Shown: positions 8,084 through 58,181, counted from the stretch's first letter. The stretch is DNA of 64,000 nucleotides from Minisyncoccota bacterium (GCA_021129515.1 JAJOLD010000001.1:164850-228849); one strand, 5' to 3'. Notes: generated by a model not told the origin, from the letters alone. Numbers and translations: made by a program.

Positions 8084-8317
<234 letters not shown>

Positions 8318-10055: not shown

Positions 10056-10123
10056 ACACATAAGAAAACCTGCCCTGCGGTAGGTTTTTGCGTTGTGGAA
10101 GGTAAAACTATATTTTTTCTATT

Positions 10124-13625: not shown

Positions 13626-14864
13626 CTAGAATGTTCTTTTTTGTTTGTGATAGGTAATAGCAAAGCGATGCGACTCTGCATTTGCAAGCAAGATACTGTC
13701 TCGATGTGTCGTAATCAAGTCACCAGGACCGATAAACTTTTTAGGCTTGTGGTGTTTGTCTTTCACCACGCCCACCACGGGAATTGAAATATTCTGCGCC
13801 CTGAGCACTGCCTCCACAGCGTTTTTCTGCGCAGTGGCTCCATCCACCACAATAAGTTCGGGCAACGGCCATGCATCGTGCTTTAAGCGACGCTCAAGCA
13901 CCTCAGTGAGCGATGCAGGGTCGTTTGCATCTGTCAAAGTTTTGATTTTAAACTTTCTATACTCACTTTTTTCGGGTTGTCCGTGTTCAACCACAACCAT
14001 AACGCCCACCATATCTTTCCCACGCATATGTGAGATATCATACCCTTCAATACGAAATGTTTTTTCGTCCCGGCAGAACCGAGATTCCTTTTTAATCAAC
14101 GCGATATCTTGAATGTGTGTGAGCGCATGCACTTTTTTACGAATTGCAATTGCTTCTTCAAACCGCTCTGCTTTGGCAAGCTGCATCATATCTCGGTTCA
14201 GCTCCTTGATAATCTGCTTTTTCTTTCCTTGAAACAAAAGCCGTATGTGCCGAATTGTTTTTATATATTCCTCTTTGTTTTCTTCACTCGGGTAGAGTCC
14301 GATTTGCCGGTTGAAATCAATTTTTCCGCGTTCCATTTTTGATGACGCTTCAGTCACTGGTTTTTTCGTATCGTAGTATTGAAACAACTTACGCACAATG
14401 CGCAAGGCTTCTTTAAAGAGCATACCGTGTGGAAAGGGTCCAAACGTATACTTAATATCTTTTTCCTCATAGTGCTCCGTGAGGTCTTTGCCGCGCACGA
14501 CCAAGAGCCGTGGAAATTCCTCGTTGGTGATGATGAGGTGGTTGTAGCTTTTGTCGTCTTTTGAACGAGTATTGAAATGAGGTTTATGGGTTCGAATGAG
14601 GTTTGCCTCAAGAATAAGTGCTTCAAGCACTGAGTCAGTCTCTGTGTATTCAACCGTTTCTGCAGTCGCTACCATTTGCGCAATAAGCGCGCTACGTTTT
14701 TCTACAATATCATCAGCAAAGTAGCTCCGCACCCGACTACGGAGTGAGGTTGCTTTGCCAATATAGAGTATTTCTTTCTGACTGCCGAGAAAAAAATACA
14801 CCCCCGGTTTGTCAGGAATATCATTTGGGATGTCACACTTTTGCATAGAAAAACAATACCACAC
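13626..14864 (-). CDS. uvrC: excinuclease ABC subunit C, short form lacking C-terminal (HhH)2 domain
   Basis: GIY-YIG N-terminus (PGVYFF...ILYIGKA), UvrB-interaction region, RNase H-like domain ending ESHRFAITYHKQKR. Confidence 0.8.
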   Translation of the reverse strand: MWYCFSMQKCDIPNDIPDKPGVYFFLGSQKEILYIGKATSLRSRVRSYFADDIVEKRSALIAQMVATAETVEYTETDSVLEALILEANLIRTHKPHFNTRSKDDKSYNHLIITNEEFPRLLVVRGKDLTEHYEEKDIKYTFGPFPHGMLFKEALRIVRKLFQYYDTKKPVTEASSKMERGKIDFNRQIGLYPSEENKEEYIKTIRHIRLLFQGKKKQIIKELNRDMMQLAKAERFEEAIAIRKKVHALTHIQDIALIKKESRFCRDEKTFRIEGYDISHMRGKDMVGVMVVVEHGQPEKSEYRKFKIKTLTDANDPASLTEVLERRLKHDAWPLPELIVVDGATAQKNAVEAVLRAQNISIPVVGVVKDKHHKPKKFIGPGDLITTHRDSILLANAESHRFAITYHKQKRTF

Positions 14865-15171: not shown

Positions 15172-16599
15172 CTAATACAACTTGCGCATGACCGTCTTTG
15201 CAAAGGGTGTGAGCTTGTCTTTAAAGTACCCTGAGATGACCCGCTTATTAATACGCGTCGCAGCTGGATATGGATAGGTTTTATTGAACAACGCTGACAC
15301 ACGCAGCCCACTCGACATCGCGAGTATCAACTCTTGCACAAGCTCGCCCGCACCCCGCGCAACCATACTTCCTCCAAAGAGCGTCCCTTTCTTTGGGTGC
15401 ACCAAGAGCTTCACTCTGCCAGACGTTGCACCCTCGGTAATCGCTCGGTCATCATGAACAAACGACTCTTCGAGTACTCGATACGATATGTTCCGTTCTT
15501 TAAGCACTGCTTCACTGAGCCCGAAAGTTGCTATTTCAGGTGTGGTATACGTAACCCAGCTCATGTGGTCGGTGTTGAGCTTTTTTTTGAAAAACGGCAC
15601 AAAGAAGTTGCGGAGTATCACACCCGCATGTAGCTCTGCCGCATGGGTGAACTGGTGTTGCCCTGCAGCGTCACCACACACAAACACACGAGGATTCGAA
15701 GTGCGTAGATATTGGTCAAGGATAATTTTGCCACAATCATCAGTGTTAATGCCCGCATTCCCAAGCCCTAGTGTATCGACATTGAGCACACGACCAATAG
15801 AGACCAAAAGCGCATCAAAGGGCAATGCCGTTTCTTCGCTCCCCTCCGCATCACGCACAATCAGGTGCCCATCCTCAATACGCAGCACCTCCTTTTTAAA
15901 GTGCAATGCAACACCATCTTCGAGTAATTGCCCCAAGAGCACCTCAGACATAGCTTTGTCCTCACGTGCAAGTATTTGCGCGTCATTAGTCACCATAGAC
16001 ACCTCGCTCCCTAGTTGCCTGAATGCCTGACCAAGCTCTACACCAATAGGACCCGCACCAATCACCACGAGTTTCTTAGGCAGTGTTTTAAGATTGAAAA
16101 TAGTTTCATTGGTATGTATCACACCTGCGTCAGTCGCTTCTTTGATACCGGGAATGTCGAGTGTGCGTGACCTGGAGCCCGTTGCAATCACAATTTTTTT
16201 GCTGGTGTATTCCTTCCCGGCGACTGACACCGCATCTTTTGACCTAAAGGTTGCGTGTCCCAAAACCACATCAATACCCATACCGCGGAAATGCTCTGCA
16301 TTTTCATGCTCACGTATCGTCTCCCGCGCCCCGTTCACATGCGCCATCACCTTTTCCATATCCACCACACCCTCCTGCGTCACTCCATACTGCGTAGCTT
16401 GCTTCCCCGCAGCAACCGTGCGCGCTGCATGTATCAATGCCTTTGAAGGCACACAGCCATAGTTGAGACAATCACCGCCAATACTCGTGTCTGATTTGTC
16501 GATAAGGAGCACCCGACACCCAACCGTGTTCATAAACACCGCAATATTGAGTCCTCCTGCTCCTGCACCGATCACGATAATGTCATATATATCTTGCAC
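15172..16599 (-). CDS. FAD-dependent pyridine nucleotide-disulfide oxidoreductase (dihydrolipoyl dehydrogenase / mercuric reductase class I family)
   Basis: GAGAGG FAD fold, redox-active GGDCLNYGCVPSK, second Rossmann VVIGAGPIG, dimerisation domain. Confidence 0.85.
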   Translation of the reverse strand: MQDIYDIIVIGAGAGGLNIAVFMNTVGCRVLLIDKSDTSIGGDCLNYGCVPSKALIHAARTVAAGKQATQYGVTQEGVVDMEKVMAHVNGARETIREHENAEHFRGMGIDVVLGHATFRSKDAVSVAGKEYTSKKIVIATGSRSRTLDIPGIKEATDAGVIHTNETIFNLKTLPKKLVVIGAGPIGVELGQAFRQLGSEVSMVTNDAQILAREDKAMSEVLLGQLLEDGVALHFKKEVLRIEDGHLIVRDAEGSEETALPFDALLVSIGRVLNVDTLGLGNAGINTDDCGKIILDQYLRTSNPRVFVCGDAAGQHQFTHAAELHAGVILRNFFVPFFKKKLNTDHMSWVTYTTPEIATFGLSEAVLKERNISYRVLEESFVHDDRAITEGATSGRVKLLVHPKKGTLFGGSMVARGAGELVQELILAMSSGLRVSALFNKTYPYPAATRINKRVISGYFKDKLTPFAKTVMRKLY

Positions 16600-16697
16600 A
16601 GCATGAGTATAACAGGTAAAGCAGACTATACATTTACCCGCACCGTGTATAAAAAAAGACCCCAGGTTCCCCCCGGGATATTCAATGAATCATCGCA

Positions 16698-18503: not shown

Positions 18504-18947
18504 TCAGGCACATACTCTTATTGTCTCATGAGCCTGTGCATGCATCGATTCCCTATATATGCGATGCAGAAATGATGCTGTTCTAAATTTCATTTCAAAA
18601 TCATCCGTGTCAAGTTCTTCATTGAGATACGTTCTATAGAACAGGGTCCCCGTCTGGATTGCTGACAGCGGAAACTCCCTCCCGACACACAACTCAGATA
18701 TACCTTGGGCGTCACGGACTTTAATCAGTAGTGTGCTTCTTGAAACTTTCCAAACAGCACACTCACAGCCCCATGTTCTATCAGTGATAAAAAAGAATAC
18801 ACGCTGAGGCAATTCCTGCATCAGACCATCAATGTAGCGTCGTAGTGCTTGCGGCTTTTTTAACACGGTCCTTACTCGTCTCATGAAATACACCTCTCTA
18901 AAGATCGTTTGCTTTAGACTGCAGGAAAACAAGGACTTTGTCAACAC
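18504..18947 (-). CDS. hypothetical protein
   Basis: ORF track, 147 aa. Confidence 0.3.
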   Translation of the reverse strand: MLTKSLFSCSLKQTIFREVYFMRRVRTVLKKPQALRRYIDGLMQELPQRVFFFITDRTWGCECAVWKVSRSTLLIKVRDAQGISELCVGREFPLSAIQTGTLFYRTYLNEELDTDDFEMKFRTASFLHRIYRESMHAQAHETIRVCA

Positions 18948-19025: not shown

Positions 19026-19544
19026 CTAGTCTTGTGAACCAAATCCGCGACCTTCACCTCCCCTGTGTGCACCCTTGCCCTTCTTGTGTTCAGGTCGTTC
19101 GAGTCCTAGCTCTTCAAAAATTTCCTTGGCACCCTCTCGGTCACCCGCTTCTTTGAGCTCATGTGCTTCTACAATTTTTTTGAAATCACTTTCTGAGTTG
19201 ATTGTATCTTCCAGTCGCGTTCCTTCAATGGCGTCTTGGAATGCATCGTAGTCTTCGTCATCAATCGCTGCATGGATTTCCTCGCGCATTGTCGTGCGGT
19301 ACTCACGAGCGGCAGTCCGGATTTCATGCATTGTTTCTCGGTCAAGGTCAGCATCGTCGAGCACTGCAATAATTTCTGTCCGGTCAGCACCTTCCATACG
19401 GAGTTCGTGTACCGCTTCGAGCGCTGCTACTTGATCACTTGAGAGGTCAACGTCGATTTTGTCGAGTATATCAGTATTAAATGCACTGACACTTGTTGCA
19501 GTCACAGCAAACGCGGCAACGGGAATAAATAATTGTTTCATCAT
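19026..19544 (-). CDS. secreted acidic alpha-helical protein (signal peptide MMKQLFIPVAAFAVTATSVSAF)
   Basis: signal peptide plus charged helical body; palindromic motif upstream. Confidence 0.5.
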   Translation of the reverse strand: MMKQLFIPVAAFAVTATSVSAFNTDILDKIDVDLSSDQVAALEAVHELRMEGADRTEIIAVLDDADLDRETMHEIRTAAREYRTTMREEIHAAIDDEDYDAFQDAIEGTRLEDTINSESDFKKIVEAHELKEAGDREGAKEIFEELGLERPEHKKGKGAHRGGEGRGFGSQD

Positions 19545-19766
19545 ATGTTAGTTGTTAGTACGTAATAAGTAGTACGTTGTTGGTAATAGAGCTATCATTG
19601 CAATGTGTTCCAGAGGCGACCGCACATGCGCCCGCCTCACCTATTACTACATCACCACCGCATACTTATTTCAAAAAACACTCCAGAGATATCTAAAGTG
19701 CGCTGTGTTGTATTGCAGATAGCTATATCAGTGGTGTATACAAAACTTTTTGTATATCAAAAATAC

Positions 19767-19792
19767 AGTATGACGTTACATTGTATCATACT
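19767..19792. promoter_or_regulatory. 26-bp imperfect palindrome AGTATGACGTTACATTGTATCATACT (site 1)
   Basis: identical at 35742-35767, 1 change at 41715-41740; all intergenic. Confidence 0.6.
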
Positions 19793-20160: not shown

Positions 20161-20655
20161 TTACTTATTGGTGACCAACGTATCAAAGGAGATGTCATAC
20201 TCTTTCCACATTGACTGCTTTGTTTCCATACTAATGTTCAACGGGTCAACGAGTTTATCGACCGCATATACAAATGCAGCCTCTGGTGTATTGCGTGCAT
20301 GGTACTCATGAATCGCTGCCACAAGTTCCGGGAATTCTGCATATTCCTTTTCTATACGCTGCAGTGCTTTTGCTTCACGAGCATCTTTGGTCTTCTTTGC
20401 TTCTTCATCATAAGCAAACGTATCACCAGCATATACCTCAACAATGTCGTGTGCGAGTGCATACTTCAACACACGCTCATGATCTAAGTCAAGCCGCTCA
20501 ACAGTCATGAGGCACCAACAATGCATCGCCAACTCAAATGTATGCTCAGCAGTATTAGTCTGTGCATGTTCATCGGGTCGCCGCGCAACACGCGTAACGC
20601 GCTCCACGTCATGCAGCAGGCGCGCAAAATGTTCTAGTTTTTCGAGCGAGGACAT
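20161..20655 (-). CDS. HD-domain phosphohydrolase (YfbR-like 5'-deoxynucleotidase family)
   Basis: H...HD...D metal motif (HTFELAMH, AHDIVEVYAGD). Confidence 0.6.
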   Translation of the reverse strand: MSSLEKLEHFARLLHDVERVTRVARRPDEHAQTNTAEHTFELAMHCWCLMTVERLDLDHERVLKYALAHDIVEVYAGDTFAYDEEAKKTKDAREAKALQRIEKEYAEFPELVAAIHEYHARNTPEAAFVYAVDKLVDPLNISMETKQSMWKEYDISFDTLVTNK

Positions 20656-20731
20656 ATGCCGAGTATAGCAAGAAATAAAAAAATCGGCACAGCAGCGCCG
20701 ATTTTTTTATATGTATGGAGTAGCTATCCGT

Positions 20732-29481: not shown

Positions 29482-30138
29482 CGAACTTAGTATGCCATGT
29501 ACAGTACCTATATTCTTAATATTCGTCTAATACATCTCATGGGGCATGGGGCAGACAAAGTAAAAAGGGTTGCGAAACGCAGCCCCGGTGAAAATGGGAA
29601 GTTCCCAATCGGCGATTGACCTTATGTAACAGCTCACACGAAACCGGACTTCCAGCGCCGGCTCGTCAATACTTTACTGACATTGGATTTCACTACTGAA
29701 TGATGCGGGTTCAAGACCCTTCGAACGCCACACTTGGCAGTGCAGCCAAAATTCAGCGATATTCCACACGGAACCAATGTCAATTGTGCACAAGCACATT
29801 AAAGTGATATGCGACCCCAGGGAACAAACCCATGTTCGATAGCACTCTATACATACAAACTATCAAGAACATATCGCTTCCTGTCCGCCATATTTTGAAT
29901 CTATGGAAATACTTAGTGAGCTACGCCGATTCCCTGTCAAAAAAGCAGGGTCGATTCAAAAAAATAGAAAATGGTGCCTGACTCCATCTTCCATTTTCTG
30001 GTGACCCCATTTTCCACTAAAATCCCACGAGGTGGAGGCTGCAGACTTGGACAGATTCTTGGATATAAAGCACACACTGCTTAGGAATAGTGTTCCTTTG
30101 TAAAAAATTCTCAGCTCACCCCATGCTACAATTCCCCC

Positions 30139-30495
30139 ATGGCACAACTACGAACACAAAAGCTTGCTGAAGAATACACGACCTACCGAAACACTTGGAC
30201 CGAAGAAACTGGTTGCGTGCTCTGTACCTGCGATGTCGCCAAGGAATTTACGTATTGGAAAATTTGTCCGGCGAAGTTCCCCTACGACCTCATTGCGTCT
30301 CGTCACGACATGCTCCTCCCGAAACGACACGTGACTGAGAACGGACTCACCGATGCAGAGCATGCAGAATATCTCGACATTAAACGCAACCATCTCAGCG
30401 ACTACGAGTTTGTTGTTGAAGGCACCTCACATACGCAAACCGTGCCGCAGCATTTTCACCAACATCTCCTCGTCATGAAAAAGATACCCGAATAA
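30139..30495 (+). CDS. HIT-family hydrolase
   Basis: histidine triad HFHQHLL near C-terminus, Cys-rich N-terminal CVLCTC. Confidence 0.55.
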   Translation: MAQLRTQKLAEEYTTYRNTWTEETGCVLCTCDVAKEFTYWKICPAKFPYDLIASRHDMLLPKRHVTENGLTDAEHAEYLDIKRNHLSDYEFVVEGTSHTQTVPQHFHQHLLVMKKIPE

Positions 30496-34622: not shown

Positions 34623-35678
34623 CTATGCAGCAGACTTTTCACCCAAGATATCTACAATCGCAATTTCAAGTGGTAGTTGCGGCAGGAACGACTTCCCTGT
34701 TTGCTCAGCCGCTTCAAGCAAACGCAGCAGCAGGTGTGAGTGAATATGTGAACCGGTCTTCTCTGCATATGCCTTGAGGAGTGCACGGTCGTCTTCTGCG
34801 TACTGCTCAAGCAGCATGTCGGCATCGGCTTGGTTATGGCGAATGAGTATGACTGCGCGCACACGTTCTAAAAGGAGTTTCATAAAAAGCTTCATATCAA
34901 CGTGTGCTGACACCGCGCTTCCCACAGCATGCAGTGCTTTTTCTGTACTACCGCTATCAAATGCTTCGAGAATATCCATTAAGAGCACATTCTTTGGCGC
35001 ACCGAGAATTGACGCTACTTCATCTGCACCAGCGAGCTTGTCGCCTGAGGCAAGCATGACCTTCTGTGTAATGCCGAGCGCGTCACGAAACGACCCATCC
35101 GCTGCAATCGCAACCATGTCAGCTGCCTGTGGGTCCATGTTGAATTTCTCTTTACGTGCAATATCAAACACGGTATCGCGAAGTACCGCACGGGTCGGCG
35201 CACGAAACTGAAATACCTGACACCGAGAAGTGATGGTATCGAGCAACTTGTCTTGCTCGGTTGTCGCAAGGATAAAGACGACGTGTGCAGGAGGTTCCTC
35301 AAGGGTCTTCAGCAGTGCATTGAATGCCTCTTTGGTGAGCATGTGCACCTCGTCAATAATGTATACCTTGTATGGCGATTCGTATGGGAGTGTATGCACG
35401 GCGTCGCGCAGCTCGCGGATGTCATCGATACCACGGTTAGATGCAGCGTCAATTTCATAAATATCAACCTCAGCAACGCCTATTTCTCGTGCAAAAATGC
35501 GTGCCACTGAGGTCTTTCCGGTACCTCGAGAGCCGGTAAACAAGAGCGCATGCGGAATAGTCTTCTTGGCAATTGCTCCTTCTAAGATAGAAACAATATG
35601 GTCTTGATTACGCACGTCCGCAAATGCCTCCGGACGATACTTTCTATACAATGCAGTCGGTTCATTATTCATGCCCAT
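34623..35678 (-). CDS. dnaX: DNA polymerase III subunit gamma/tau, short
   Basis: AAA+ Walker A GSRGTGKTS, DEVHML Walker B, SRC motif TITSRCQ. Confidence 0.9.
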   Translation of the reverse strand: MGMNNEPTALYRKYRPEAFADVRNQDHIVSILEGAIAKKTIPHALLFTGSRGTGKTSVARIFAREIGVAEVDIYEIDAASNRGIDDIRELRDAVHTLPYESPYKVYIIDEVHMLTKEAFNALLKTLEEPPAHVVFILATTEQDKLLDTITSRCQVFQFRAPTRAVLRDTVFDIARKEKFNMDPQAADMVAIAADGSFRDALGITQKVMLASGDKLAGADEVASILGAPKNVLLMDILEAFDSGSTEKALHAVGSAVSAHVDMKLFMKLLLERVRAVILIRHNQADADMLLEQYAEDDRALLKAYAEKTGSHIHSHLLLRLLEAAEQTGKSFLPQLPLEIAIVDILGEKSAA

Positions 35679-35741
35679 CAGTATACCAGAGCATAGCGGT
35701 ATCGAATATCCTCACCCGCTCTTTGTCACATCTAGCATATT

Positions 35742-35767
35742 AGTATGACGTTACATTGTATCATACT
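35742..35767. promoter_or_regulatory. 26-bp palindromic motif site 2, in dnaX upstream region
   Basis: identical to site 1. Confidence 0.6.
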
Positions 35768-35806: not shown

Positions 35807-36643
35807 TCACGGTACAGAAACCACTTCCTCGCCCAGAAGCACGCGCGCATCGCGTACGAGGTCACTACTCCCAAGCAATACAAGCACCACCTCGGCGCCA
35901 TCAGGCATATGGAATATGCCTACAAACGTACGGCCTGCAGCACTGGTGAAGCCGTGTTTCCCACCTTGATATCCTATCGATGTATAGAGCGGGCTATTGT
36001 TGCGCCAGCCATTGTCTTCCCCAACGTACAGTGAGAGTCGCGTAATGTCGAGTACATAGGGATATGCATCATGCATGTGCTGCACGAACGACGCCACGTC
36101 AGCAACGGAAGAAACGTTATTGTTACTGAGCCCTGATGCATCTGCAATTGTTGTGGCGTCCAAACTTATGTCATCTGCCACCTGCGCAACACGCGCTGCA
36201 AAGCGATTGCCGAGGATACGCGCAATTGCTTCTCCGGCATCATTTGAAGACTCGAGCAGTAGCGGAAACAATAGTTCACGGAGTGTGAACGTATCGCCAT
36301 GCGCAAACCTTCCCGCGCGCCCGTGTGTTTCTAAATCATGCCAGTTAATGATCACCGTCTCGTCATAGCTGTCGGTTGCGGCAACTGCGTATGCGGTAAA
36401 CAACTTTGTGATAGATGCAATAGGCAGCACTGCTTCTGTGTTATGTCCTGAAAGCAGTTTGTTTGTGCGTGCATCATAGAGCCCCCACGCTGTAGCACTT
36501 ACCGGCAACTCGGCTCTGTCTTCGTACAGCGCGTACGGATTGGATGGCGTAGGCACTGCATAGGTGTCACTACTCGCAAGAAAAAAGAATCCTGTCCCGA
36601 GCATGAGTGTGAAAACCAGTAACCATTTGAAGAAGCCGTGCAT
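35807..36643 (-). CDS. D-alanyl-D-alanine carboxypeptidase (S11 penicillin-binding protein)
   Basis: signal peptide, SxxK motif SITKLFTAY, SxN, KTG-like. Confidence 0.8.
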   Translation of the reverse strand: MHGFFKWLLVFTLMLGTGFFFLASSDTYAVPTPSNPYALYEDRAELPVSATAWGLYDARTNKLLSGHNTEAVLPIASITKLFTAYAVAATDSYDETVIINWHDLETHGRAGRFAHGDTFTLRELLFPLLLESSNDAGEAIARILGNRFAARVAQVADDISLDATTIADASGLSNNNVSSVADVASFVQHMHDAYPYVLDITRLSLYVGEDNGWRNNSPLYTSIGYQGGKHGFTSAAGRTFVGIFHMPDGAEVVLVLLGSSDLVRDARVLLGEEVVSVP

Positions 36644-38943: not shown

Positions 38944-39831
38944 TTAGTTATCTGCCGCTTCATCTGCATTCATTGCCTCCACACTACTGGAGGCAATTTC
39001 TTCTTCTATACCTTCATGTACAAACACTTTGTTACCAAAGCGAAGATCAATATAATCAAAATTTCCAGGAGCAATATGCGCAAACTCAGGTGCGGAGAGT
39101 AGTGCAACTATATTTTCAAATACTGCTGTTGCCGGCATGGTGTTATTAACCAAAAATTGCCCGCCACCACTGAGTCGATAGGCTATGTCTGTTTCGTTAC
39201 TATGCGTAGCACCAAGCACGCGAAAAGGATACTGCGATTCTAGCAGCGCAATAAATGTCTCCATGTTTTCAAGCGAGGCAGCATCAAATATATGGGTACG
39301 GTTTGTCAGCTCCGCTGCTTCTACCACATGGCGCATAAACGCACCGCCGCGCATTGGGGGTGCTGGCGAGAACGCATAGCCCGTGTCATCGACAAAGAGA
39401 CACCGTGCGGTGCGCGTTTCATTTTCACACCACAATGCATACGGTATGTATTCTTCAAAAGAAATAGCAAGCGTGTTGTTGCCCTCGCGCTGTATCACCA
39501 GCGAGTGAATGCGAGTCTCGTGACGCAAGGCTTCCTGTATCTGTTCATGCGGATAGAGATACGTAAACGTACGGGGTACGACTAAAAAATAGGTACCCGC
39601 AAGCTGCGCTTCAACCATACCTCGGATTTTTGTGTGTGAGACGGTCTCACCTCCCGTAATATGGATATCGGTAATGGTAAAGAATGGCAGGCGAGTCACA
39701 TACCACGTACCCACACACAACAACAGGAGCAGGCTCATACCAAGACCTCCCCATAACAACTGACGCCCCATACTCGGTGCTGTGGTACGCCGTGCTCGAC
39801 CCGTATGCTGTCTACGCCATAGTCGCTGCAT
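38944..39831 (-). CDS. FtsQ/DivIB-like cell-division protein (TM + POTRA)
   Basis: N-terminal basic tail, TM, POTRA-like FFTITDIHITGGETVSHTKI. Confidence 0.45.
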   Translation of the reverse strand: MQRLWRRQHTGRARRTTAPSMGRQLLWGGLGMSLLLLLCVGTWYVTRLPFFTITDIHITGGETVSHTKIRGMVEAQLAGTYFLVVPRTFTYLYPHEQIQEALRHETRIHSLVIQREGNNTLAISFEEYIPYALWCENETRTARCLFVDDTGYAFSPAPPMRGGAFMRHVVEAAELTNRTHIFDAASLENMETFIALLESQYPFRVLGATHSNETDIAYRLSGGGQFLVNNTMPATAVFENIVALLSAPEFAHIAPGNFDYIDLRFGNKVFVHEGIEEEIASSSVEAMNADEAADN

Positions 39832-39837: not shown

Positions 39838-41139
39838 CTATTGTATCGTATCGTGCGCCTCTTTTGAGCGTGTTGGCGCGGCGATTGTGTCTTTTCCAAT
39901 ATACTGTTGCAAGACTTCGGGGATACGTACTGAGCCGTCAGCCTGTTGGAAGTTTTCAACGAGCGACACAAGCACCCGCGGTGTTGGGATTGCTGTACAG
40001 TTGAGTGAGTGCGCGTATTTTACCTTGCCATCTTCGTCTCGATAGCGAATGTTAAATCGACGTGTCTGGAAGTCATGGAAGTATGACGCTGAACTGATTT
40101 CTCGATACTTCTTTTCAAGTGGCACCCAGAGTTCAACGTCATACTTCTTCACCTGCCCTTGCCCTAGGTCGCCACCACAGTTAAGTACCGTTCGGTATGG
40201 AATGCCCAGTGATTCAATAAACTCTTCCGTGTTTTTATTCAGCCATTCGTGCCACGTCACCGATTCTTCATGACTTGCTTCGCAGAGAATCACCTGCTCG
40301 AGCTTGAAGAACTCATGCACTCGAATAAGCCCCTTTGTGTCTTTCCCATGACTTCCCGCCTCACGACGAAAACATGGTGAAAATGAAAGCCACTTACTAG
40401 GCAGCTCTTTTTTGTCCAAGACTTCATCTGAGCGATAGCCCATGGTTGAAACCTCAGAGGTACCGATGAGATAATCGTTATCCTGGGTGTGGTATACATC
40501 TTCTGCTTCGTTCGGAAGATGTCCAGTACCATAGAGATTGCTCTGTCGCACAATTGCCGGCACAAGCATTGGGTCAAACCCACGCTTTGTGAAGAAATCA
40601 AGCGCGTAGTTCCAGATAGCCCAAGAGAGTCGTGCGCCATCACCCATGAGATAATACCCGCGGAATCCATGCACCTTGGCGCCCCGCTCAAAATCAACCA
40701 TACCGAGCTTCGTCATAATGTCGACATGGTCTTTTGGTTCAAACTCAAATGCCGTCTTTTCACCCCACGTCTTATGCTCAACATTATCCTCGTCACTCTT
40801 TCCGTCAGGGACTGACATATCGGGAATATTAGGTACCTGGAGCATGAGTGTCTGCCACTCGGTCATAATCTCCTTGAGTGACGCTTCGTCTTTCTGGATG
40901 TCTTCCTTGAGCGTCTTCACCCCCGCGATAAGCTCATTACGCGCAGCAGCATCGGTCGTCTGTGCAACCTCAGCCGATACCCGGTTTTGCTCGGCTTTCT
41001 TTTCTTCCATTTCCGCAATCAAGCCCTTACGCTTATCGTCAAGTTCAACCAATCGGTCAAGGTCGACCTCCATATTTTTCTTCTTTGCACCCATCTTTAC
41101 GAGGTCCAAATTCTCGCGAATAAATTTAATGTCTAACAT
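39838..41139 (-). CDS. serS: serine--tRNA ligase
   Basis: N-terminal coiled coil, class II motifs (FRREAGSHGKDTKGLIRVHEF). Confidence 0.95.
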   Translation of the reverse strand: MLDIKFIRENLDLVKMGAKKKNMEVDLDRLVELDDKRKGLIAEMEEKKAEQNRVSAEVAQTTDAAARNELIAGVKTLKEDIQKDEASLKEIMTEWQTLMLQVPNIPDMSVPDGKSDEDNVEHKTWGEKTAFEFEPKDHVDIMTKLGMVDFERGAKVHGFRGYYLMGDGARLSWAIWNYALDFFTKRGFDPMLVPAIVRQSNLYGTGHLPNEAEDVYHTQDNDYLIGTSEVSTMGYRSDEVLDKKELPSKWLSFSPCFRREAGSHGKDTKGLIRVHEFFKLEQVILCEASHEESVTWHEWLNKNTEEFIESLGIPYRTVLNCGGDLGQGQVKKYDVELWVPLEKKYREISSASYFHDFQTRRFNIRYRDEDGKVKYAHSLNCTAIPTPRVLVSLVENFQQADGSVRIPEVLQQYIGKDTIAAPTRSKEAHDTIQ

Positions 41140-41280
41140 GTTTAGTGATTAGTTACTTGGTACTCAGTACTTCGTTATCAATACATTAACTGTACCGTCA
41201 TTCTAAATTGACCCATTTTTCTTATGACTGAAAGGAATTAGAAACAATGGTAATACCCCTGTGGTGCATTTCAGAATCTC

Positions 41281-41310
41281 ATAAGATCCTGAAACAAGTT
41301 CAGGATGACA
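41281..41310. repeat. REP-like hairpin repeat copy 3 (inverted orientation)
   Basis: ataagatcctgaaacaagttcaggatgaca. Confidence 0.6.
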
Positions 41311-41351
41311 TACCCTGTTTTGTTGGCAACGCTCATGATTATACATCAGAA

Positions 41352-41385
41352 ACCCCGCACTTCGTGCGGGGTTTCTTGGTTACAT
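41352..41385. terminator. GC hairpin aaaccccgcac-ttcg-tgcggggttt with T-rich flank
   Basis: seen directly in serS-dprA intergenic region. Confidence 0.4.
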
Positions 41386-41714
41386 CAAAATCTCCCGCAC
41401 TAGCATCTACTAGAAGAAGATGATGATGACACACGTGTATGCATATAATCGAGCATAGCATAGCGAGCACACCCGTCAATTATAAAAGGCCCAGAATCTA
41501 TCACATACGTACTATGTGTGATCCTTGGGCCCTGTTGACCGTATTGGTCCATGACCATGAAATGGTCTCTTTTGAATACGCCGCATTAAACAGCGTCTGG
41601 GGTACATACTTGACTGGATTTTTAAAGAAAGAGCATTTTAAAGAGCATGTTTATTGTAGCAAAAACTATGTACACCATCCACAGCCTGGTCTTATGGCAT
41701 TGTTTCGTGACAAT

Positions 41715-41740
41715 AGTATGATGTTACATTGTATCATACT
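41715..41740. promoter_or_regulatory. 26-bp palindromic motif site 3 (C-to-T variant), 45 nt upstream of dprA
   Basis: AGTATGATGTTACATTGTATCATACT. Confidence 0.6.
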
Positions 41741-41785
41741 ATACATCCATACATGCTCGTGTCTTCTATATTGCCGTAGAGTGAT

Positions 41786-42664
41786 ATGATTACATGTATG
41801 AGCACCTTCCCTATTCATACGCTTTCCAAAAATGAATTTCCCAAGCAACTTTTGGAAATCCCCAAGCCTCCCGAAGTGCTTACCTACCGAGGTGCACTGC
41901 CACCCGACACCGCCAAGTGCTTAGCGGTTGTTGGCTCACGCAACTACACCAACTACGGCAAGCAAGCACTCGAGTATTTGATACGCAGTCTCCGTGGACA
42001 CAACATCGCGATTATTTCGGGCCTCGCACTCGGCATCGACAGCCTCGCACATAAAGCAGCACTCGACGCGGAGCTCTATACCCTCGCGGTCCCCGGTTCG
42101 GGTATCGACGACTCAGTCATTTACCCCCGTCGTCACAAAGGACTCGCCTACGAAATACTGGGAGCTGGTGGCGGACTCCTCTCAGAATTCGAACCGACTT
42201 TCAAAGCGACCACCTGGTCCTTCCCGCAGCGCAACAGAATTATGGCAGGGCTTGCAGACGCAGTACTCGTGGTAGAAGCAACACAAAAATCAGGCACGCT
42301 GATTACCGCGCGCCTCGCAACTGACTACAACCGTGATGTGCTCACGATTCCGGGTGATATATTTTCCGCTTCGAGCGAAGGCCCACATATGCTCATTAAG
42401 CTGGGCGCAACCCCGGTGACAACACCTGAAGATATTCTTGAAGCACTCCATATTGATACTGAGCCTACTACCGCACCCCTCCCAATCGACGACCTACCAC
42501 AAGAAGAAGCGTCTATACTCGCACTCCTTAGCGCTCCAACTGAGCGAGATACACTCGTACGTGCCGCGAATATGGACACACAAACCTGCACAACAACCCT
42601 TACCATGATGGAGATTAAGGGACTTATTAGTATCGACGGCAATGTTGTGCGGAGATTGCGGTAA
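41786..42664 (+). CDS. dprA: DNA processing protein DprA
   Basis: Rossmann-like DprA core (AVVGSRNYTNYG...SGLALGIDS...). Confidence 0.85.
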   Translation: MITCMSTFPIHTLSKNEFPKQLLEIPKPPEVLTYRGALPPDTAKCLAVVGSRNYTNYGKQALEYLIRSLRGHNIAIISGLALGIDSLAHKAALDAELYTLAVPGSGIDDSVIYPRRHKGLAYEILGAGGGLLSEFEPTFKATTWSFPQRNRIMAGLADAVLVVEATQKSGTLITARLATDYNRDVLTIPGDIFSASSEGPHMLIKLGATPVTTPEDILEALHIDTEPTTAPLPIDDLPQEEASILALLSAPTERDTLVRAANMDTQTCTTTLTMMEIKGLISIDGNVVRRLR

Positions 42665-45271: not shown

Positions 45272-46906
45272 TTGGATGGAGCCTGCCCGCATAATTATTC
45301 GTGCGGGCTTGTCGGCACAGAAGACAGAGAGTACAATCAAATGATGTACACTGCCGAAGACATCATCACCTATCTACCATCACCAACGCAAGCTGATCGC
45401 GAACTTATTACCGCTGCCTATGAGTTTGCACGCGAAGCTCACGAGGGACACACACGCTACTCTGGCGAACCGTACCTCTCGCACCTTGCATCGGTCGCAA
45501 AAATGCTTGCTGAAATGGGTTTTGGTACCCGCACGATTTCAGCCGGATTACTTCATGACTCCATAGAAGACACTGGTGTGACTGAGAACGAAATCAGGAA
45601 GCTCTTTGGAGAAGAAATTCTCTTCTTGGTGCAAGGTGTCACCAAGCTGGGTTCCGTACGGTACTACGGGAGTGATAGACACAATGAAAGTTTGCGCAAA
45701 CTCTTTGTGGCAACGAGTCAGGATATTCGAGTTCTTATCATCAAGCTTGTCGACCGGCTGCACAACATGCAGACCTTTGCACATGTACCGGCACACAAGC
45801 AGAAACGTATTGCCCGAGAAACACTTGAAATATACGCCCCCGTTGCGCATCGCCTTGGTATGGGACGCATTCGCAAAGACCTCGAAGATATGGCATTTCC
45901 CTATGTGTATCCCGACGAATACAAACGCGTGCAAGAAATCATTACCCCACTTGCCAAAAAGGCTGACACCGACCTTGAAAAAATACGCAAAACGATTCAA
46001 CGCAAGTTAGTCGAAGATGGTATGCGTGACTTTAAGACCCACACACGTATCAAGGGAACGTATAGTCTCTATCACAAACTCCGTCGTCGTGATTGGGATA
46101 TTGATAAAATCTACGATTACCTTGCTATTCGTGTCATTGTAAAAAACGTAGAAGATTGCTACCAGGTCCTTGGTATCATTCATAAATTTTGGCGACCAAT
46201 GCCAAATAGACTCAAAGATTATATCGCCAACAAAAAACCAAACGGCTATCAATCAATCCACACGACGGTATGCATTCCAACCGACACTATTCTTGAGATT
46301 CAAATTCGTACTGATGACATGCATCGAGAAGCAGAGTTCGGTATCGCATCACACATGATTTATAAAGAAGCACAACAAGGACGCGGCGTATCAAAAGCAA
46401 GCAATAAGCCTTGGTTCACTTCACTCATTCCATCACTCTTTCGTCCTTTTGCGTGGCGCACCACACTCCAAGCACCACGTGAGGAGGAAGAACTTTTTTC
46501 AGAGCGCAGTCCAAAAGAAAAAATACCGCACTGGATTCAAGAAGTTGCAGAAGCACACAAGAGCACCAAGGCACCACATGGATTTATGGAAGATCTGAAA
46601 AACGACTTCTTCTCATACCGCATCTTTGTATTCACCCCTGAGGGTGACGTGGTTGACCTTCCGGTTGATGCGAGCCCTATTGATTTTGCCTATGCAATTC
46701 ACTCAGAAATCGGCAACCATGTATCAGGTGCACGGGTAAACAACAAACTCGTGGGGCTTGATACGGGTCTGAAAAACGGTGACATTGTTGAAATCTTGAC
46801 CAAGGACAGCAGCCGCCCAACACAAAAATGGATGGAATACGCAAAAACCACCCTCGCGCAACGCAAGATTCGCGCATCAATTGAAGCTACAGCGAAAAGT
46901 GCTTAA
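45272..46906 (+). CDS. RelA/SpoT-family (p)ppGpp synthetase/hydrolase (likely start at ATG 45341)
   Basis: HD motif LLHDSIEDT, RelA/SpoT synthetase region, TGS-like C-terminus. Confidence 0.9.
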   Translation: MDGACPHNYSCGLVGTEDREYNQMMYTAEDIITYLPSPTQADRELITAAYEFAREAHEGHTRYSGEPYLSHLASVAKMLAEMGFGTRTISAGLLHDSIEDTGVTENEIRKLFGEEILFLVQGVTKLGSVRYYGSDRHNESLRKLFVATSQDIRVLIIKLVDRLHNMQTFAHVPAHKQKRIARETLEIYAPVAHRLGMGRIRKDLEDMAFPYVYPDEYKRVQEIITPLAKKADTDLEKIRKTIQRKLVEDGMRDFKTHTRIKGTYSLYHKLRRRDWDIDKIYDYLAIRVIVKNVEDCYQVLGIIHKFWRPMPNRLKDYIANKKPNGYQSIHTTVCIPTDTILEIQIRTDDMHREAEFGIASHMIYKEAQQGRGVSKASNKPWFTSLIPSLFRPFAWRTTLQAPREEEELFSERSPKEKIPHWIQEVAEAHKSTKAPHGFMEDLKNDFFSYRIFVFTPEGDVVDLPVDASPIDFAYAIHSEIGNHVSGARVNNKLVGLDTGLKNGDIVEILTKDSSRPTQKWMEYAKTTLAQRKIRASIEATAKSA

Positions 46907-48392
46907 GTGAGTATAAATCAGTATCATCTTCTTTCTTTGTTTCTGAAGATTCAGAAGGAGCCACAGATTTCTCCGGCGCATGCTCTGGCGATGCTACCGT
47001 CTCAACATCGTCATGTACGGGTGGATGCGCGGGTGCTGCATGAATACCCTGCTTTGCGGCAACTGGTTCCGCAGTAGGTGGTGTCGGCTGTGTTTGTACG
47101 TGTGCTTCGGTAGTGTGCCCCGCGTGGTGTTCGGTACGAAGGTCCTCAACGCGTGTCAGCGGAAATGCATCAGCCACGCTTTCCGTTGCCTGCTGTGGTT
47201 CAGAGACTCCTGATTCTGGTGTTGCTGTGTGCTCTGCCTCAGTAGCTGCGTCAGCAGCGGGTGCTGGAGTCGCTTCAGTAGCATTACGGTATGCGGCAAA
47301 TTCGGGTGCCATGTATATTGGTGCTGCCGTTTCGGGTTCCGCGTCTACGGGTTGCTCGTGCACAGCTACTGACGCTTGTGTGTGCAGGTCCTCCACCTCG
47401 ACAGGATCATCATCACCATTGCGGTACACCTCAAACTGTGACTCCACTGGTGTAGGCGCTGCCGCAATGTTATTTTCTGCAGCAGCCAGCGGTGTTGCCG
47501 CTGCAATTTTTGCAATAGTTGTACCTCCCTCCTGCTCGTTATGCATCACAATATTTGCATCATCATGATTCACCAATTGATACAATTTTTCCAAGTCATC
47601 TTGCGAGAAATAATCAATCGTCACTTTACCCCCATAATCAGTCTTGGTGATTTGCACCCGAGTACCAAGTGTTTCTGTAAATTGCTTTTCAATTTCAATA
47701 ATTTCTGGGTCCACACCCCAATCTTTCTTCCGCACCTTATCAGTCGCAATCTTGCGTGCAATACGCTCCACCTCACGGACCGAGAGTTTCTTCAGGAGAA
47801 TTTCGCGAAAAAGGGTGTCTTGCTCTTCTGGTCGGTCGTTAAGCATCAAGAGTGTGCGGGCATGCCCGTCAGAAATATCCCCCACTTTGAGCGCGTTCAA
47901 GATACTACTCGGCAACTGCAACAGACGAATCGAGTTGGACACATACTCACGTGAACGTCCCATCTTCTTCGCAACCTGCGCATGCGACAGTTTAAATTGT
48001 TCTGCAAGTTGCTTAAATGCCATCGCACGGTCGACCGCATTGAGATCTTCACGTTGGAGATTTTCAATAATCGCAAGCTCGAACTTCATTTGTTCGCTCT
48101 CTTCTTCAGAACGAATAATAACCGGCACCTGCTGCAAGCCAGCGAGTTTCGATGCACGCAATCGGCGCTCACCTGCAATCAACTCATATTGGGTAGTAAA
48201 GGCGCCTTCTTCACCAATGATTTCCTTCCGTGTCACCACCAACGGCTGCAATACGCCATACATGCGGATAGATTCCGCAAGTTCACTAAGCTTTTCTTCG
48301 CTGAATTCCCGCCGCGGCTGGAATGGGTTTGGTACCACTTTTTCAACCTCCACCCAAAAAATAGAATCTCCTTCGTATGCCATGTCGGACAT
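46887..48392 (-). CDS. parB: ParB-family partition protein with ~230-aa acidic low-complexity C-terminal tail (longest ORF to 48527 overlaps tRNA-Leu)
   Basis: ParB box VVPNPFQPRREF, GERRLRASKLAG; start reassigned to MSDMAYEG. Confidence 0.8.
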   Translation of the reverse strand: MSDMAYEGDSIFWVEVEKVVPNPFQPRREFSEEKLSELAESIRMYGVLQPLVVTRKEIIGEEGAFTTQYELIAGERRLRASKLAGLQQVPVIIRSEEESEQMKFELAIIENLQREDLNAVDRAMAFKQLAEQFKLSHAQVAKKMGRSREYVSNSIRLLQLPSSILNALKVGDISDGHARTLLMLNDRPEEQDTLFREILLKKLSVREVERIARKIATDKVRKKDWGVDPEIIEIEKQFTETLGTRVQITKTDYGGKVTIDYFSQDDLEKLYQLVNHDDANIVMHNEQEGGTTIAKIAAATPLAAAENNIAAAPTPVESQFEVYRNGDDDPVEVEDLHTQASVAVHEQPVDAEPETAAPIYMAPEFAAYRNATEATPAPAADAATEAEHTATPESGVSEPQQATESVADAFPLTRVEDLRTEHHAGHTTEAHVQTQPTPPTAEPVAAKQGIHAAPAHPPVHDDVETVASPEHAPEKSVAPSESSETKKEDDTDLYSLKHFSL

Positions 48393-48441
48393 TGTAGCAT
48401 ATCGCCCATTGTGGACGCTGTTTATAATTATCGATAAATTT

Positions 48442-48475: not shown

Positions 48476-48560
48476 GGGCGTGTGGCGGAATTGGTATACG
48501 CGTACGACTCAAAATCGTATGGAGCAATCCATGAGGGTTCGACCCCCTCCACGCCCACCA
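48476..48560 (+). tRNA. tRNA-Leu (anticodon CAA), long variable arm, CCA encoded
   Basis: manual fold; anticodon loop CUCAAAA; T-arm GAGGG-TTCGACC-CCCTC. Confidence 0.9.
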
Positions 48561-48571: not shown

Positions 48572-48650
48572 GTAGGAATTGGTAGGTAAAACAGTACGGG
48601 GTACTGTTTTACCTCAAAATCATATGGAGCAATCCATGAGGGTTTGACCT
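48572..48650 (+). pseudogene. tRNA-Leu pseudo-copy with hairpin (48585-48613) replacing D-stem 3' and anticodon-stem 5' strands
   Basis: ggaattggta + hairpin + cctcaaaatcatatggagcaatccatgagggtttgacc parallels the tRNA. Confidence 0.55.
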
Positions 48651-52489: not shown

Positions 52490-52693
52490 ACCCGAAGTTA
52501 AGTTTCAGAACTTTTTATTGTATTTTTTATTTTTTTATTGCATAGTTGAAATCAACCTGGGTACAAGTATGTGTTTGGAGTACTCCTGCTCATTACTCTA
52601 CTTTTCGTCAAGTTCAAGTGACGGTAACAAACCGCTTTCCCTTTCTGGGTGAGCGGTGTTTTTATACAACCAACTCCTGCAATATTTGAATGT

Positions 52694-52844
52694 TTGATTT
52701 GATATACTCCCTTTCTTTATACAGTTCTGAAAGCCACGTTTCTTGCCCGAAAAGAATTTGTATATTTTTGCTATACCTACATGCAAAAATACAAATTCTC
52801 GGGCAGGTAATTCTTATGAATGTAATGAATTAGAATTGGACGCC
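52694..52844. repeat. mosaic repeat copy B (R1 piece + cctacatgcaaaaataca...cgggcaggtaa...ttggacgcc)
   Basis: aligned to copies at 10124, 53669, 54782. Confidence 0.6.
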
Positions 52845-53635: not shown

Positions 53636-53668
53636 GCATCAATCGATACAAACTGTAGTGAGACCTGA

Positions 53669-53745
53669 ACGCTGGATTTGATACACTCCCGCTCCTCATG
53701 CAATTCTGAAAGCCACATTTTTTGCTCGAGAGTTGAAAATATGAA
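53669..53745. repeat. mosaic repeat piece R2 (ctggatttgatacactccc...ttctgaaagccac)
   Basis: ~60-nt similarity to 52694-52760; begins with inverted tRNA-Tyr T-arm-like ctggatttga. Confidence 0.55.
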
Positions 53746-53764: not shown

Positions 53765-54139
53765 TTAACACTTCAATGTATTCCACCCACCCGTCTGTAA
53801 GAAGGATTGGTCAACAAGCATAGAGAGGATAGTGTCAATAATAAGCCATGCAGCAAGCATAATGATGAACCCTATCAGCACATTTGAAAAAATACCCTTC
53901 CCTTTCTGTATTTGGCTCATATTACCAGCAGCCGTAATCATCAAAAAACCTGCCCATGCAAATGCGATGCCAGCAAGTACTGTCGAGAATTTAATAATGA
54001 AGGTCAACATACGGTCAACCAATTCAAGCAGGTGACAAAAGTTACAATTTACTCCATTACACGGTACTAATTGTGCAAATGCCAAAGTAGGCACCAAGTA
54101 CCCTACCACCATTAAGATTGTCAACATGTAGAATCTCAT
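53765..54139 (-). CDS. VirB2/TrbC-like pilin candidate
   Basis: signal peptide, Cys-rich VPCNGVNCNFC, two hydrophobic helices, ~120 aa. Confidence 0.3.
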   Translation of the reverse strand: MRFYMLTILMVVGYLVPTLAFAQLVPCNGVNCNFCHLLELVDRMLTFIIKFSTVLAGIAFAWAGFLMITAAGNMSQIQKGKGIFSNVLIGFIIMLAAWLIIDTILSMLVDQSFLQTGGWNTLKC

Positions 54140-54248
54140 GCCTCAATAGTAGCACACCTTTTCTATCCACTTTCATACTTCAGTGAGTTATGGTACGGTA
54201 TACCCTGCGTTTTGTATTGCAATTTATGCAGAATACAGTTTCACACAT

Positions 54249-54594
54249 GCGTCGGTGGCAGAGTGAGAAAGCGTGGGACGCTTTCGCAAGACCTTGCCCG
54301 ATATTTTTTGAGGCGAATGCCGACAGTAAAATATCGACAAGGTGTACAGCGTCTGTAAGACGGAAAGGATGTCGGGACACTCTTCTAAGAAAAAGCGTTC
54401 TAACAAAAGAATAATTATGCGTCGGTGGCAGAGTGGATGAGAAGTGAACTACTTCACTTCTCATCTGGTCTTCGAGCGAATGCGAGAAGATTGGTCGTTA
54501 TGAGTATTTGCGCAGCTTATACGAATAGACCAAAGGAGGAAACGCGGTCGAACGCCCGCCAGAGAAAATGCGTTCTTACTAAAATCGGATACTT
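54249..54594 (+). repeat. two tandem ~170-176-bp units each containing leader + tRNA-Tyr 5' 17-18 nt + perfect hairpin (54267-54284; 54437-54464)
   Basis: GCGTCGGTGGCAGAGTG at 54249 and 54419 equals tRNA-Tyr 5' end; upstream leaders also similar. Confidence 0.7.
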
Positions 54595-54678
54595 GCGTCG
54601 GTGGCAGAGTGGTCAATTGCATCAGACTGTAAATCTGACGGGCTTCGCCCTACGCTGGTTCAAATCCAGCCCGGCGCA
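54595..54678 (+). tRNA. tRNA-Tyr (anticodon GUA), long variable arm
   Basis: manual fold; anticodon loop CUGUAAA; T-arm GCTGG-TTCAAAT-CCAGC. Confidence 0.9.
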
Positions 54679-54781: not shown

Positions 54782-54915
54782 CTTCTTATAGAAGCAGTAC
54801 ACCTTTGTAAACAAAGGTCTTGCGAAAGTCTCCAAGACTTTTTCACCTACATGGAAAAATATGAATTCCCGGGCAGGTAACTCTTGAGAGCGTAAGCGAA
54901 CTAGAGTTGGACGCC
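54782..54915. repeat. mosaic repeat copy C (complete version)
   Basis: cttcttatagaagcag...cctacatggaaaaatatgaattcccgggcaggtaactc...ttggacgcc. Confidence 0.6.
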
Positions 54916-57326: not shown

Positions 57327-58181
57327 GTGGGCAGTTTTTTTATTTGCTATACTCACTCCATGTCATCATTTCCGCCATATGCGACTATTGAAAAATATAT
57401 TGGGGAGACTCCTCTTGAGGCTTCTAAGCGGTTGCGTGAGAATTTGCACATCCCCAAAAACATACCGCTTGCGTACGCTGGCAGACTCGACCCGATGGCA
57501 TCGGGCACGCTTCTCATACTCATTGGTGACGAGTGCAAACGGCAAACCGAGTATCACTCGCTCGACAAGACCTATACATTTGAAATACTCTTTGGTGCGC
57601 AGTCAGATACTGGCGATGTTCTAGGATTAGTACAACCATGTAGTACTGACACTGGCATTGCTGCACATGCTTTGCAAAAAACACTTCGTACCCTATGCGG
57701 AAATATCGAACTCTCCTATCCACACTTTTCCTCAAAGACAGTGAACGGAAAACCCCTGCATACATGGACACTTGAAGGGAGACTCAGTGAAATCGATATC
57801 CCAACCAAGCAGTCGACGATATATGTACTAACACTTTTAGAACTTCGTACCGTTTCCGCAAAGGAGGTAGAAGCATATGTGATGGAGAAAATAGAGACAC
57901 CAACGACTGTAACTGCTGATTCGAAGAAACTTGGTGCGAACTTCAGACGCGATGACGTGCGCGCTTCTTGGAAGACCTTTTTTAAAACCGCTGAGCATAC
58001 TGAGTTTCAGATAGCGGGCATACGCTGTACTGCGTCATCGGGTACCTATATGCGCTCGCTTGCGGAAGAAATAGCGGAGCGGTTCGGAACCTGTGGGCTT
58101 GCATACAGCATCCACCGTACTACCATCGGTAGGTATCAAAAAATATTTGGGGATGTTGGGTTTTGGAGGAAGAAGTTCTAA
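57327..58181 (+). CDS. truB: tRNA pseudouridine(55) synthase TruB-like
   Basis: catalytic Asp motif AGRLDPMASG, 284 aa. Confidence 0.65.
   Translation: MGSFFICYTHSMSSFPPYATIEKYIGETPLEASKRLRENLHIPKNIPLAYAGRLDPMASGTLLILIGDECKRQTEYHSLDKTYTFEILFGAQSDTGDVLGLVQPCSTDTGIAAHALQKTLRTLCGNIELSYPHFSSKTVNGKPLHTWTLEGRLSEIDIPTKQSTIYVLTLLELRTVSAKEVEAYVMEKIETPTTVTADSKKLGANFRRDDVRASWKTFFKTAEHTEFQIAGIRCTASSGTYMRSLAEEIAERFGTCGLAYSIHRTTIGRYQKIFGDVGFWRKKF

Follow-up and report, generated by a model that had tools for sequence, protein, structure and literature searches.

The window, i.e., the whole 64-kb stretch of DNA that was analysed, comes from a bacterium that its dnaX and serS homologues place among Paceibacteria/Kaiserbacteria-like members of the candidate phyla radiation (CPR), with the nearest database species at ~75-79% protein identity. 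Between 2.9 and 41 kb the coding strand is predominantly the minus strand, and on it lie a gene for a 172-aa protein with a signal-peptide-like N-terminus, dnaX, a gene for a penicillin-binding-protein-type D-Ala-D-Ala carboxypeptidase (Peptidase_S11; the PBP gene) and serS, with dprA following on the plus strand (Table 1). The assignments of dnaX and dprA made in the original prediction were confirmed by Pfam. Among these genes are three copies of a 26-mer, AGTATGAYGTTACATTGTATCATACT, all of which were recovered at the positions first reported for them, with 0, 0 and 1 mismatch, by a pattern search of the 64-kb window that allowed ≤3 mismatches. The DNA between the copies consists of housekeeping genes and forms no island, and the cumulative GC skew changes monotonically from one end of the window to the other, so that the window contains neither a terminus nor an origin.

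The placements proposed for the copies also hold. Copy 1 lies between genes, 37 nt downstream of the stop codon of a 72-aa gene and 222 nt upstream of the ATG (19544) of the 172-aa protein. Copy 2 lies 39 nt downstream of the PBP gene stop; its distance to the dnaX ATG at 35678 is 63 nt, and to the start codon at 35672, which is the more likely one, it is 69 nt. For copy 3 the distances are 45 nt to the dprA ATG at 41786 and 57 nt to the ATG at 41798, the likely start. A 116-aa ORF runs over copy 3, with a codon score of -0.215 against 0.10-0.34 in 25 Pfam-supported genes; it thus scores as non-coding, and all three copies are therefore intergenic. Fully intergenic 26-mer positions make up ~16% of the window, and the chance of finding three of three copies in them is ~0.004.

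Near copy 1, public contigs carry a gene call for a 147-aa ORF, yet its codon usage looks non-coding (-0.141) and it matches no family; the genes of 72 and 172 aa beside it are strongly coding (0.345).

Table 1. Positions of the repeat copies, neighbouring genes, promoter-like elements and other features of the window (for the copies, the strand is that of the embedded promoter-like core)
Feature	Position	Strand	Remarks
Copy 1, exact	19767-19792	-	between the 72-aa gene and the 172-aa protein gene
Copy 2, exact	35742-35767	-	between the PBP gene and dnaX
Copy 3, C8>T	41715-41740	-	in the 645-bp non-coding serS-dprA spacer
172-aa protein gene	19026-19544	-	signal-peptide-like N-terminus
dnaX	34623-35678	-	Pfam
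PBP gene	35807-36643	-	Pfam
serS	39838-41139	-	Pfam
dprA	41786-42664	+	Pfam
Extended -10 TGATACAAT, copy 1	19780-19788	-	predicted start ~19771
Extended -10 TGATACAAT, copy 2	35755-35763	-	predicted start ~35746
Extended -10 TGATACAAT, copy 3	41728-41736	-	predicted start ~41719
Second extended -10 TGCTACAAT	41653-41661	-	75 nt downstream of the copy 3 -10
Native leaderless dnaX promoter and start, TGGTATACT-N7-ATG	35670-35688 (promoter 35680-35688)	-	clade-conserved
Native leaderless dprA promoter and start, TGATATGAT-N7-ATG	41782-41800 (promoter 41782-41790)	+	ATG at 41798
Further TGnTAyAmT-start codon examples	48381-48399; 30124-30141; 20653-20670; 16597-16614; 57345-57362		
Terminator-like hairpin and six-T run	19678-19701	-	~70-95 nt downstream of the predicted copy 1 start
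Non-coding, strongly structured stretch	41349-41714	-	downstream of copy 3; ends in a 12-bp G+C-rich hairpin (41349-41375)
Fourth arm pair, GTATGA-N13-TCATAC	41796-41820	+	80 bp past copy 3
147-aa ORF	18504-18947	-	
uvrC	13626-14864		
parB	46887-48383	-	498 aa
T4SS-pilin-like gene	53765-54139		
Second hairpin family	2870-2911; 2899-2923; 4400-4424; 41269-41310; 58240-58270		intergenic, both orientations
Partial tRNA duplicates	9636-9657 / 10031-10052; 48508-48544 / 48613-48649; 54245-54265 / 54415-54435 / 54591-54611		beside intact genes
51-64-nt repeats	52687-52750 / 53666-53729; 10123-10173 / 52775-52825 / 54845-54895		

Anatomy and boundaries of the repeat

The 26-mer AGTATGACGTTACATTGTATCATACT is exact at copies 1 and 2, and the sole difference in copy 3 is the transition C8>T (plus-strand numbering), so that the match level is 26/26 and 25/26 positions, the central 12 bp included. 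The window holds exactly three matches, all on the plus strand. When 100 dinucleotide shuffles were searched with ≤3 mismatches, no match was seen, and relaxing the search of the window to 10 mismatches produced no degenerate family members, the next-best match having at least 9 mismatches. The same orientation in three of three copies has p ~0.25, and with n=3 there is little statistical power. The copies cluster within 22 kb, and the remaining ~58 kb of the ~80 kb of genome examined are free of them; this includes ~16 kb of same-strain DNA past both window ends, reached by exact-protein look-ups.

The conserved repeat measures ~27-28 nt and ends sharply on both sides (yAGTATGA...TCATACTA). 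Comparison of the 110-nt flanks on both sides of the copies gave no similarity above that of shuffles, and no target-site duplications or direct repeats were seen flanking the three copies. The structure first described for it, 7-bp outer inverted arms around an inner palindrome, proved partly right: the arms AGTATGA/TCATACT are real and extend to 8 bp in copies 2 and 3, but the inner TACA-T-TGTA symmetry is centred 1.5 bp away from the centre of the arms, and the 26-mer is therefore not a nested (concentric) palindrome. Only 16 of the 26 positions are self-complementary, and the non-palindromic 12-bp spacer between the arms is identical across the copies. As single-stranded DNA the 26-mer forms a weak hairpin (-3.9 to -4.2 kcal/mol), with an A+T-rich stem and a 12-nt loop. 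A search for the arm pair returned four matches against 0.10 expected, three of which are the known copies; the fourth has one extra spacer base and overlaps the probable dprA start codon, and it may be a chance occurrence.

Several known classes of element were ruled out for the 26-mer by spacing, copy number or sequence, namely a CRISPR repeat, DUS/USS, a dif/Xer site, a DnaA box and a Fur/Zur box. The cop-box/BlaI box was likewise rejected, as it reads TACAnnTGTA and the motif has one central base only.

Other repeats occur in the window. A second dispersed family is formed by hairpins of the type ATCCTGAA-n-TTCAGGAT, with shared flanks (TGTCATCC... and CTTATGAGAT), whose members are 72-92% alike; the Logan contigs L102 and L105 stop at 41238, ~30 nt short of the member at 41269-41310. 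Partial tRNA duplicates stand beside intact genes: the 3′ end of tRNA-Ala recurs 395 nt and the 3′ part of tRNA-Leu 105 nt downstream of the respective gene, and tRNA-Tyr has two extra 5′ fragments at ~170-nt spacing, all of which look like att-type integration scars or pseudo-tRNAs. Near the T4SS-pilin-like gene and the tRNA fragments are repeats of 51-64 nt with 69-82% identity, each with a TGATAyACT promoter-like element, which may be paralogous small-gene promoters or element remnants.

Native promoters and the promoter-like core

The regions upstream of dnaX and dprA were compared among the relatives L003, L005, L007 and L013-L040, and a simple arrangement emerged. In ~20 relatives the PBP-dnaX spacer carries TCTGnTATAMT with an ATG 6-8 nt further on, and dprA in the relatives is preceded by TGnTACACT, with the ATG after 7-11 nt. 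Both genes of the window have kept such clade-conserved leaderless extended -10 promoters, with presumed start sites, and contig L101 calls dprA from the ATG at 41798. As both native promoters are intact, the 26-mer is an addition upstream of them, its centre lying at about -82.5 (dnaX) and -70.5 (dprA) relative to the presumed leaderless start sites.

The same element recurs across the window, where TGNTAYAMT was counted 20 times against 8.5 +/- 2.7 in shuffles. Its sites are mostly just 5′ of genes or tRNAs and co-oriented with them, and often stand 6-8 nt before an ATG. The hexamer TACAAT serves as the -10 of at least three leaderless genes, i.e., parB (48391-48399), the gene starting at 30139 (30124-30132) and the gene at 38944-39831. 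Taken as a clade-wide rule, TGnTAyAmT with a start codon 6-8 nt later implies leaderless mRNAs for many genes, and several of the first-ATG ORF starts in the window are probably off by 2-50 codons, with dnaX starting at 35672, dprA at 41798, parB at 48383 and truB at 57360.

The minus strand of every copy of the repeat reads AGTA-TGATACAAT-GTAACG-TCATACT, and TGATACAAT is an extended -10 nonamer that fits both TGnTATAAT and the local consensus TGnTAyAmT. An extended -10 element, defined as TGn and then a hexamer that resembles TATAAT and has A as its second and T as its sixth base, was found on the minus strand in three of three copies and nowhere on the plus strand of the motif; a sigma-70 -35/-10 scan of both strands found no spaced promoter running through it. 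The motif shares this element with the extended -10 (TGn) sigma-70 leaderless promoters, found 6-8 nt before many ATGs here and in relatives, with the differences that it has no start codon at leaderless distance and that its conserved block is longer and ends in palindromic arms. An encoded mini-ORF (MIQCNVIL... on the minus strand, MTLHCIIL... on the plus strand) was rejected, there being no promoter at leaderless distance, and the enclosing ORFs score as non-coding.

The minus-strand units ahead of the motif cores include dnaX and do not include dprA. In copy 2 (dnaX) and in copy 3 alike, a second extended -10 follows exactly 75 nt downstream of that of the motif, and in copy 2 this second element is the native dnaX promoter. 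Past copy 1 stands a terminator-like hairpin, which may either bound a ~100-nt transcript or terminate the upstream gene. Past copy 3, a 384-nt stretch has a folding z-score of -5.27 on the minus strand against -2.66 on the plus strand. Searches with Rfam at permissive thresholds around copies 1 and 3 found no known RNA, and the structured stretch below copy 3 (Table 1) belongs to no family; it is a candidate unannotated RNA, which the promoter of the motif could drive.

Relatives, strains and competing readings

A survey of relatives covered 92 loci (~1.3 Mb), including 80 related species, most of which keep the order dnaX, PBP, serS, dprA. Conservation upstream of dnaX and dprA in relatives, which the original prediction had proposed to check, was not found: with ≤7 mismatches the motif is absent from all 80 related species, the syntenic dnaX and dprA-serS loci included, and among the 92 loci only same-species contigs bear it. 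An exact search for the 22-nt core gave no match in GTDB representative genomes or in IMG/VR and a single one in the metagenome contigs of JGI (L001); this match falls within a coding frame, in a contig that is A+T-rich and unrelated, and is apparently due to chance. A search of the 80 relatives for analogous multi-copy intergenic motifs yielded terminator hairpins, fragments of tRNAs and local repeats of unrelated sequence, and nothing else, and a literature search found no Patescibacteria motif of this kind.

Within the species, the strain contigs covering copy 1 are 100% identical to the window, and the sister strain L002 (99.7% identical) has in its dnaX copy of the motif a substitution that breaks one arm pair. 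Both known variants, this one and the C>T of copy 3, fall outside the nonamer (p ~0.43). The spacers that hold the repeat are expanded, with 128 bp between the PBP gene and dnaX against mostly 4-30 bp in relatives, and 645 bp between dprA and serS against 22-100 bp in many of them.

Across the clade, the spacer between the divergent dprA and serS genes is a hot spot of variation, measuring 22-100 bp in many species and 540-2100 bp elsewhere, and the long spacers (L013, L017, L019, L024-L026, L028, L030 and L042) carry accessory genes, e.g., ORFs of 225-239 aa and 208-239 aa. No similarity was found between these large spacers and that of the window, and the accessory genes are unrelated. In the relative L053 a 34-nt hairpin-containing repeat, GGTACGGATTTTTTGAAGCTTAAAAAATCCTGAA, occurs in the dprA-serS spacer (5825-5858) and again 2.3 kb away (8154-8187), which is an independent example of a short repeat at this locus.

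The motif was first interpreted as the operator of a LexA-like or competence-type repressor joining dnaX and dprA. What stands of this proposal is the placing of the copies between genes and ahead of those it named; a LexA-like or competence-type operator is not supported. LexA boxes are built on phylum-specific cores, e.g., CTGT-N8-ACAG, CGAAC-N4-GTTCG or GTTC-N7-GTTC. The 26-mer contains neither CTGT/ACAG nor GAAC/GTTC, in agreement with the initial remark that it matches no known LexA box. The SOS boxes and the competence sites (cin-box, CRP-S, ComK boxes) resemble the motif in lying upstream of DNA-metabolism genes such as dnaX and dprA, and differ from it in that the motif has none of their known cores, is not conserved in relatives and has no copy near uvrC, or indeed anywhere in the window besides the three. 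The regulator that had been suggested as a further check, whether LexA, XRE-type or another transcription factor, was not found in the window, where no Peptidase_S24/LexA protein is present among the scanned proteins and the only DNA-binding protein found is a ParB. A repressor operator would be expected to overlap the region from -35 to +20; the motif centres lie ~82 and ~70 bp upstream of the inferred start sites of the native promoters, which is too far to occlude RNA polymerase. The only directional element of the motif, moreover, points towards dnaX and away from dprA, which argues against a joint dnaX-dprA operator.

A different kind of regulator, a dimeric protein that would bind the AGTATGA/TCATACT arms and control the native dnaX and dprA promoters, and perhaps the secreted-protein gene, is quite unlikely; at such a distance, activation from upstream (class I-type) or repression by looping would be more likely than repression by occlusion. 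Its arguments are the inverted arms of 7-8 bp, the intergenic position of every copy, the spacing of the two centres, which with the assumed starts are roughly one helical turn apart, and the fourth arm pair over the dprA start codon. Copies scattered in coding regions, or always next to the hairpin repeats, had been named as the mark of a dispersed repeat; no copy lies in a coding region and only copy 3 is within ~400 nt of such a hairpin, and a cis-regulatory role for the motif is therefore still compatible with its distribution. What speaks against such a site is that the motif is not kept at orthologous loci in 80 relatives and that its spacer is as invariant as its arms, in contrast to known regulon sites. 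Furthermore, being asymmetric (16/26), it stands in opposite orientation relative to dnaX and to dprA, copy 1 is about 235 bp from its gene, the arm pair is broken in the nearly identical strain L002, and the window offers no candidate for the regulator. The CIRCE/HrcA operator resembles the motif in having 27 bp, two arms about one helical turn apart and few promoters per genome, but its 9-bp arms enclose a variable 9-bp spacer and are conserved across phyla, whereas the motif has an invariant spacer, an unrelated sequence and a single species. Neither is the CIRCE sequence itself (TTAGCACTC-N9-GAGTGCTAA upstream of chaperone genes) present, and the neighbouring genes do not encode chaperones.

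The sharp boundaries, the near-identity of the copies and the restriction to one species would also suit a selfish or neutral REP-like or miniature terminal-inverted-repeat element, spread or left behind by a mobile-element-type process and tolerated only in intergenic DNA, in which case the promoter-like core would be incidental to A+T-rich sequence. The whole of this reading is unlikely, if by no means far-fetched. The size of 26-28 bp falls within that of REPs, and like REP/BIME elements of 20-40 bp the motif is an imperfect palindrome, strictly extragenic, often just after genes (two copies follow stop codons by 37-39 nt), lineage-specific and set in unrelated flanks. The host spacers are expanded, a member of the other hairpin family occupies the spacer of copy 3, and the contigs of two independent assemblies stop 2 nt past copy 2, which is what a repeat node would produce. 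REP/BIME elements, however, have a 5′ GTAG and a stable G+C-rich stem, are mobilised by RAYT (REP-associated tyrosine transposase) proteins and occur in high copy and in inverted pairs, whereas the motif starts with (T)AGTATGA, has the weak A+T-rich stem and 12-nt loop described above, and is represented by only three copies in ~80 kb, in uniform orientation, co-directional with genes and not in inverted pairs. In the same ~80 kb no transposase or RAYT gene was found, and the window also yielded no Y1 transposase and no integrase gene. The Neisseria Correia elements and other promoter-making MITEs share with the motif the defined ends, the terminal inverted repeats and a -10 brought upstream of host genes, and are far longer, with 100-150 bp or more against ~27 bp, while the motif has no known cognate transposase; of the features of a MITE, the terminal inverted repeats are present in the motif and the target-site duplication and the length of 50-500 bp are lacking, and its promoter activity is a predicted one.

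The uniform orientation and the clustering in 22 kb might also point to another kind of DNA site, namely a Ter-like polar barrier to replication forks, a target of site-specific recombination, or a non-canonical site that serves the orphan ParB as centromere or for clamp loading, all of which are most improbable. The gene for this ParB lies 5 kb from copy 3 and has no adjacent parA; the protein has ParB_N, HTH_ParB and ParB_C domains and a C-terminal extension of ~230 aa. The window contains no canonical parS with ≤3 mismatches, and in 1.4 Mb of related loci the matches did not exceed chance level. The sites of ParB/KorB proteins (parS, OB operators) are, like the motif, few near-identical palindromes in one region near parB, and a KorB site can influence promoters that lie far from it. 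A parS, on the other hand, is a conserved, contiguous 16-bp palindrome near TGTTNCACGTGAAACA; the motif has a 7-N12-7 architecture, its half-sites 12 bp apart, and is missing in relatives that have this gene neighbourhood and should therefore share the ParB. As to a Ter-like function, copy 3 (AGTATGATGTTAC) resembles the E. coli Ter core (AGTATGTTGTAAC), which is a lead only, as the match fails in copies 1 and 2. The monotonic skew, with no terminus or origin in the window, and the housekeeping genes between the copies also count against this group of sites.

A candidate portable promoter

The full identity over the 26 positions, the unrelated flanks, the restriction to a single species and the expanded spacers speak for the recent copying of a bounded unit rather than for evolved regulon sites. 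Since the only directional feature of this unit is a consensus promoter, and since the copies are arranged to fit it, the reading favoured here, tentatively and at somewhat less than even strength, is that the 26-mer is an interspersed palindromic repeat peculiar to this lineage and works as a portable auxiliary promoter, which a repressor might control through the arms. The use of the core by RNA polymerase, the binding of the arms and the mode of copying are what we infer from the sequence.

According to this proposal, a young, species-specific and sharply bounded repeat of ~27-28 bp would have been copied into three intergenic spacers of a Paceibacteria-like genome, bringing with it, at its centre, a complete extended -10 promoter of the clade type (TGATACAAT, minus strand). 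The promoter would fire on the minus strand, giving a 5′-extended dnaX mRNA from copy 2, running from copy 1 into the spacer or the operon of the 172-aa secreted protein, and from copy 3 into the putative, unannotated structured RNA of the dprA-serS spacer. The arms bracket the promoter core, with AGTATGA overlapping the TG and TCATACT covering roughly +1 to +7, and they might serve as an operator for a dimeric repressor, which would then cover the -10 and the start site.

Some of the evidence weighs against a promoter function. An extra promoter 75 nt upstream of the conserved dnaX promoter, inside an apparent operon, seems redundant, and the terminator after copy 1 may simply be part of the upstream gene. 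Moreover, we know of no ordinary promoters that keep the discriminator and the first transcribed bases perfectly, as the copies do, so that their identity would reflect recency and not promoter function. A bolder variant of the portable promoter, in which the repeat would be a mobile promoter-operator cassette, its extended -10 set between the half-sites of one repressor and recently spread so as to bring dnaX, the secreted-protein operon and the structured RNA under common control, is improbable. If it were true, few known portable regulatory modules would be smaller than this cassette, and Paceibacteria would have a first defined regulon signal.

The feature is best classed as a variant of the short interspersed palindromic repeats with a promoter-like core, such elements being undescribed in the phylum. 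Should it be a neutral repeat, the lesson would be that identical short palindromes in one genome are not to be read as operators before relatives have been checked. A useful by-product is the clade-wide promoter rule set out above, with its start codon 6-8 nt after TGnTAyAmT and its leaderless mRNAs. To our knowledge, almost nothing is known of transcription control in candidate-phyla-radiation bacteria; should the motif work as a portable promoter or binding site, it would be an example of how copies of a 27-bp cassette rewire the genes of a reduced genome, and it would offer a tractable experimental handle, as a reporter or as a pull-down bait.
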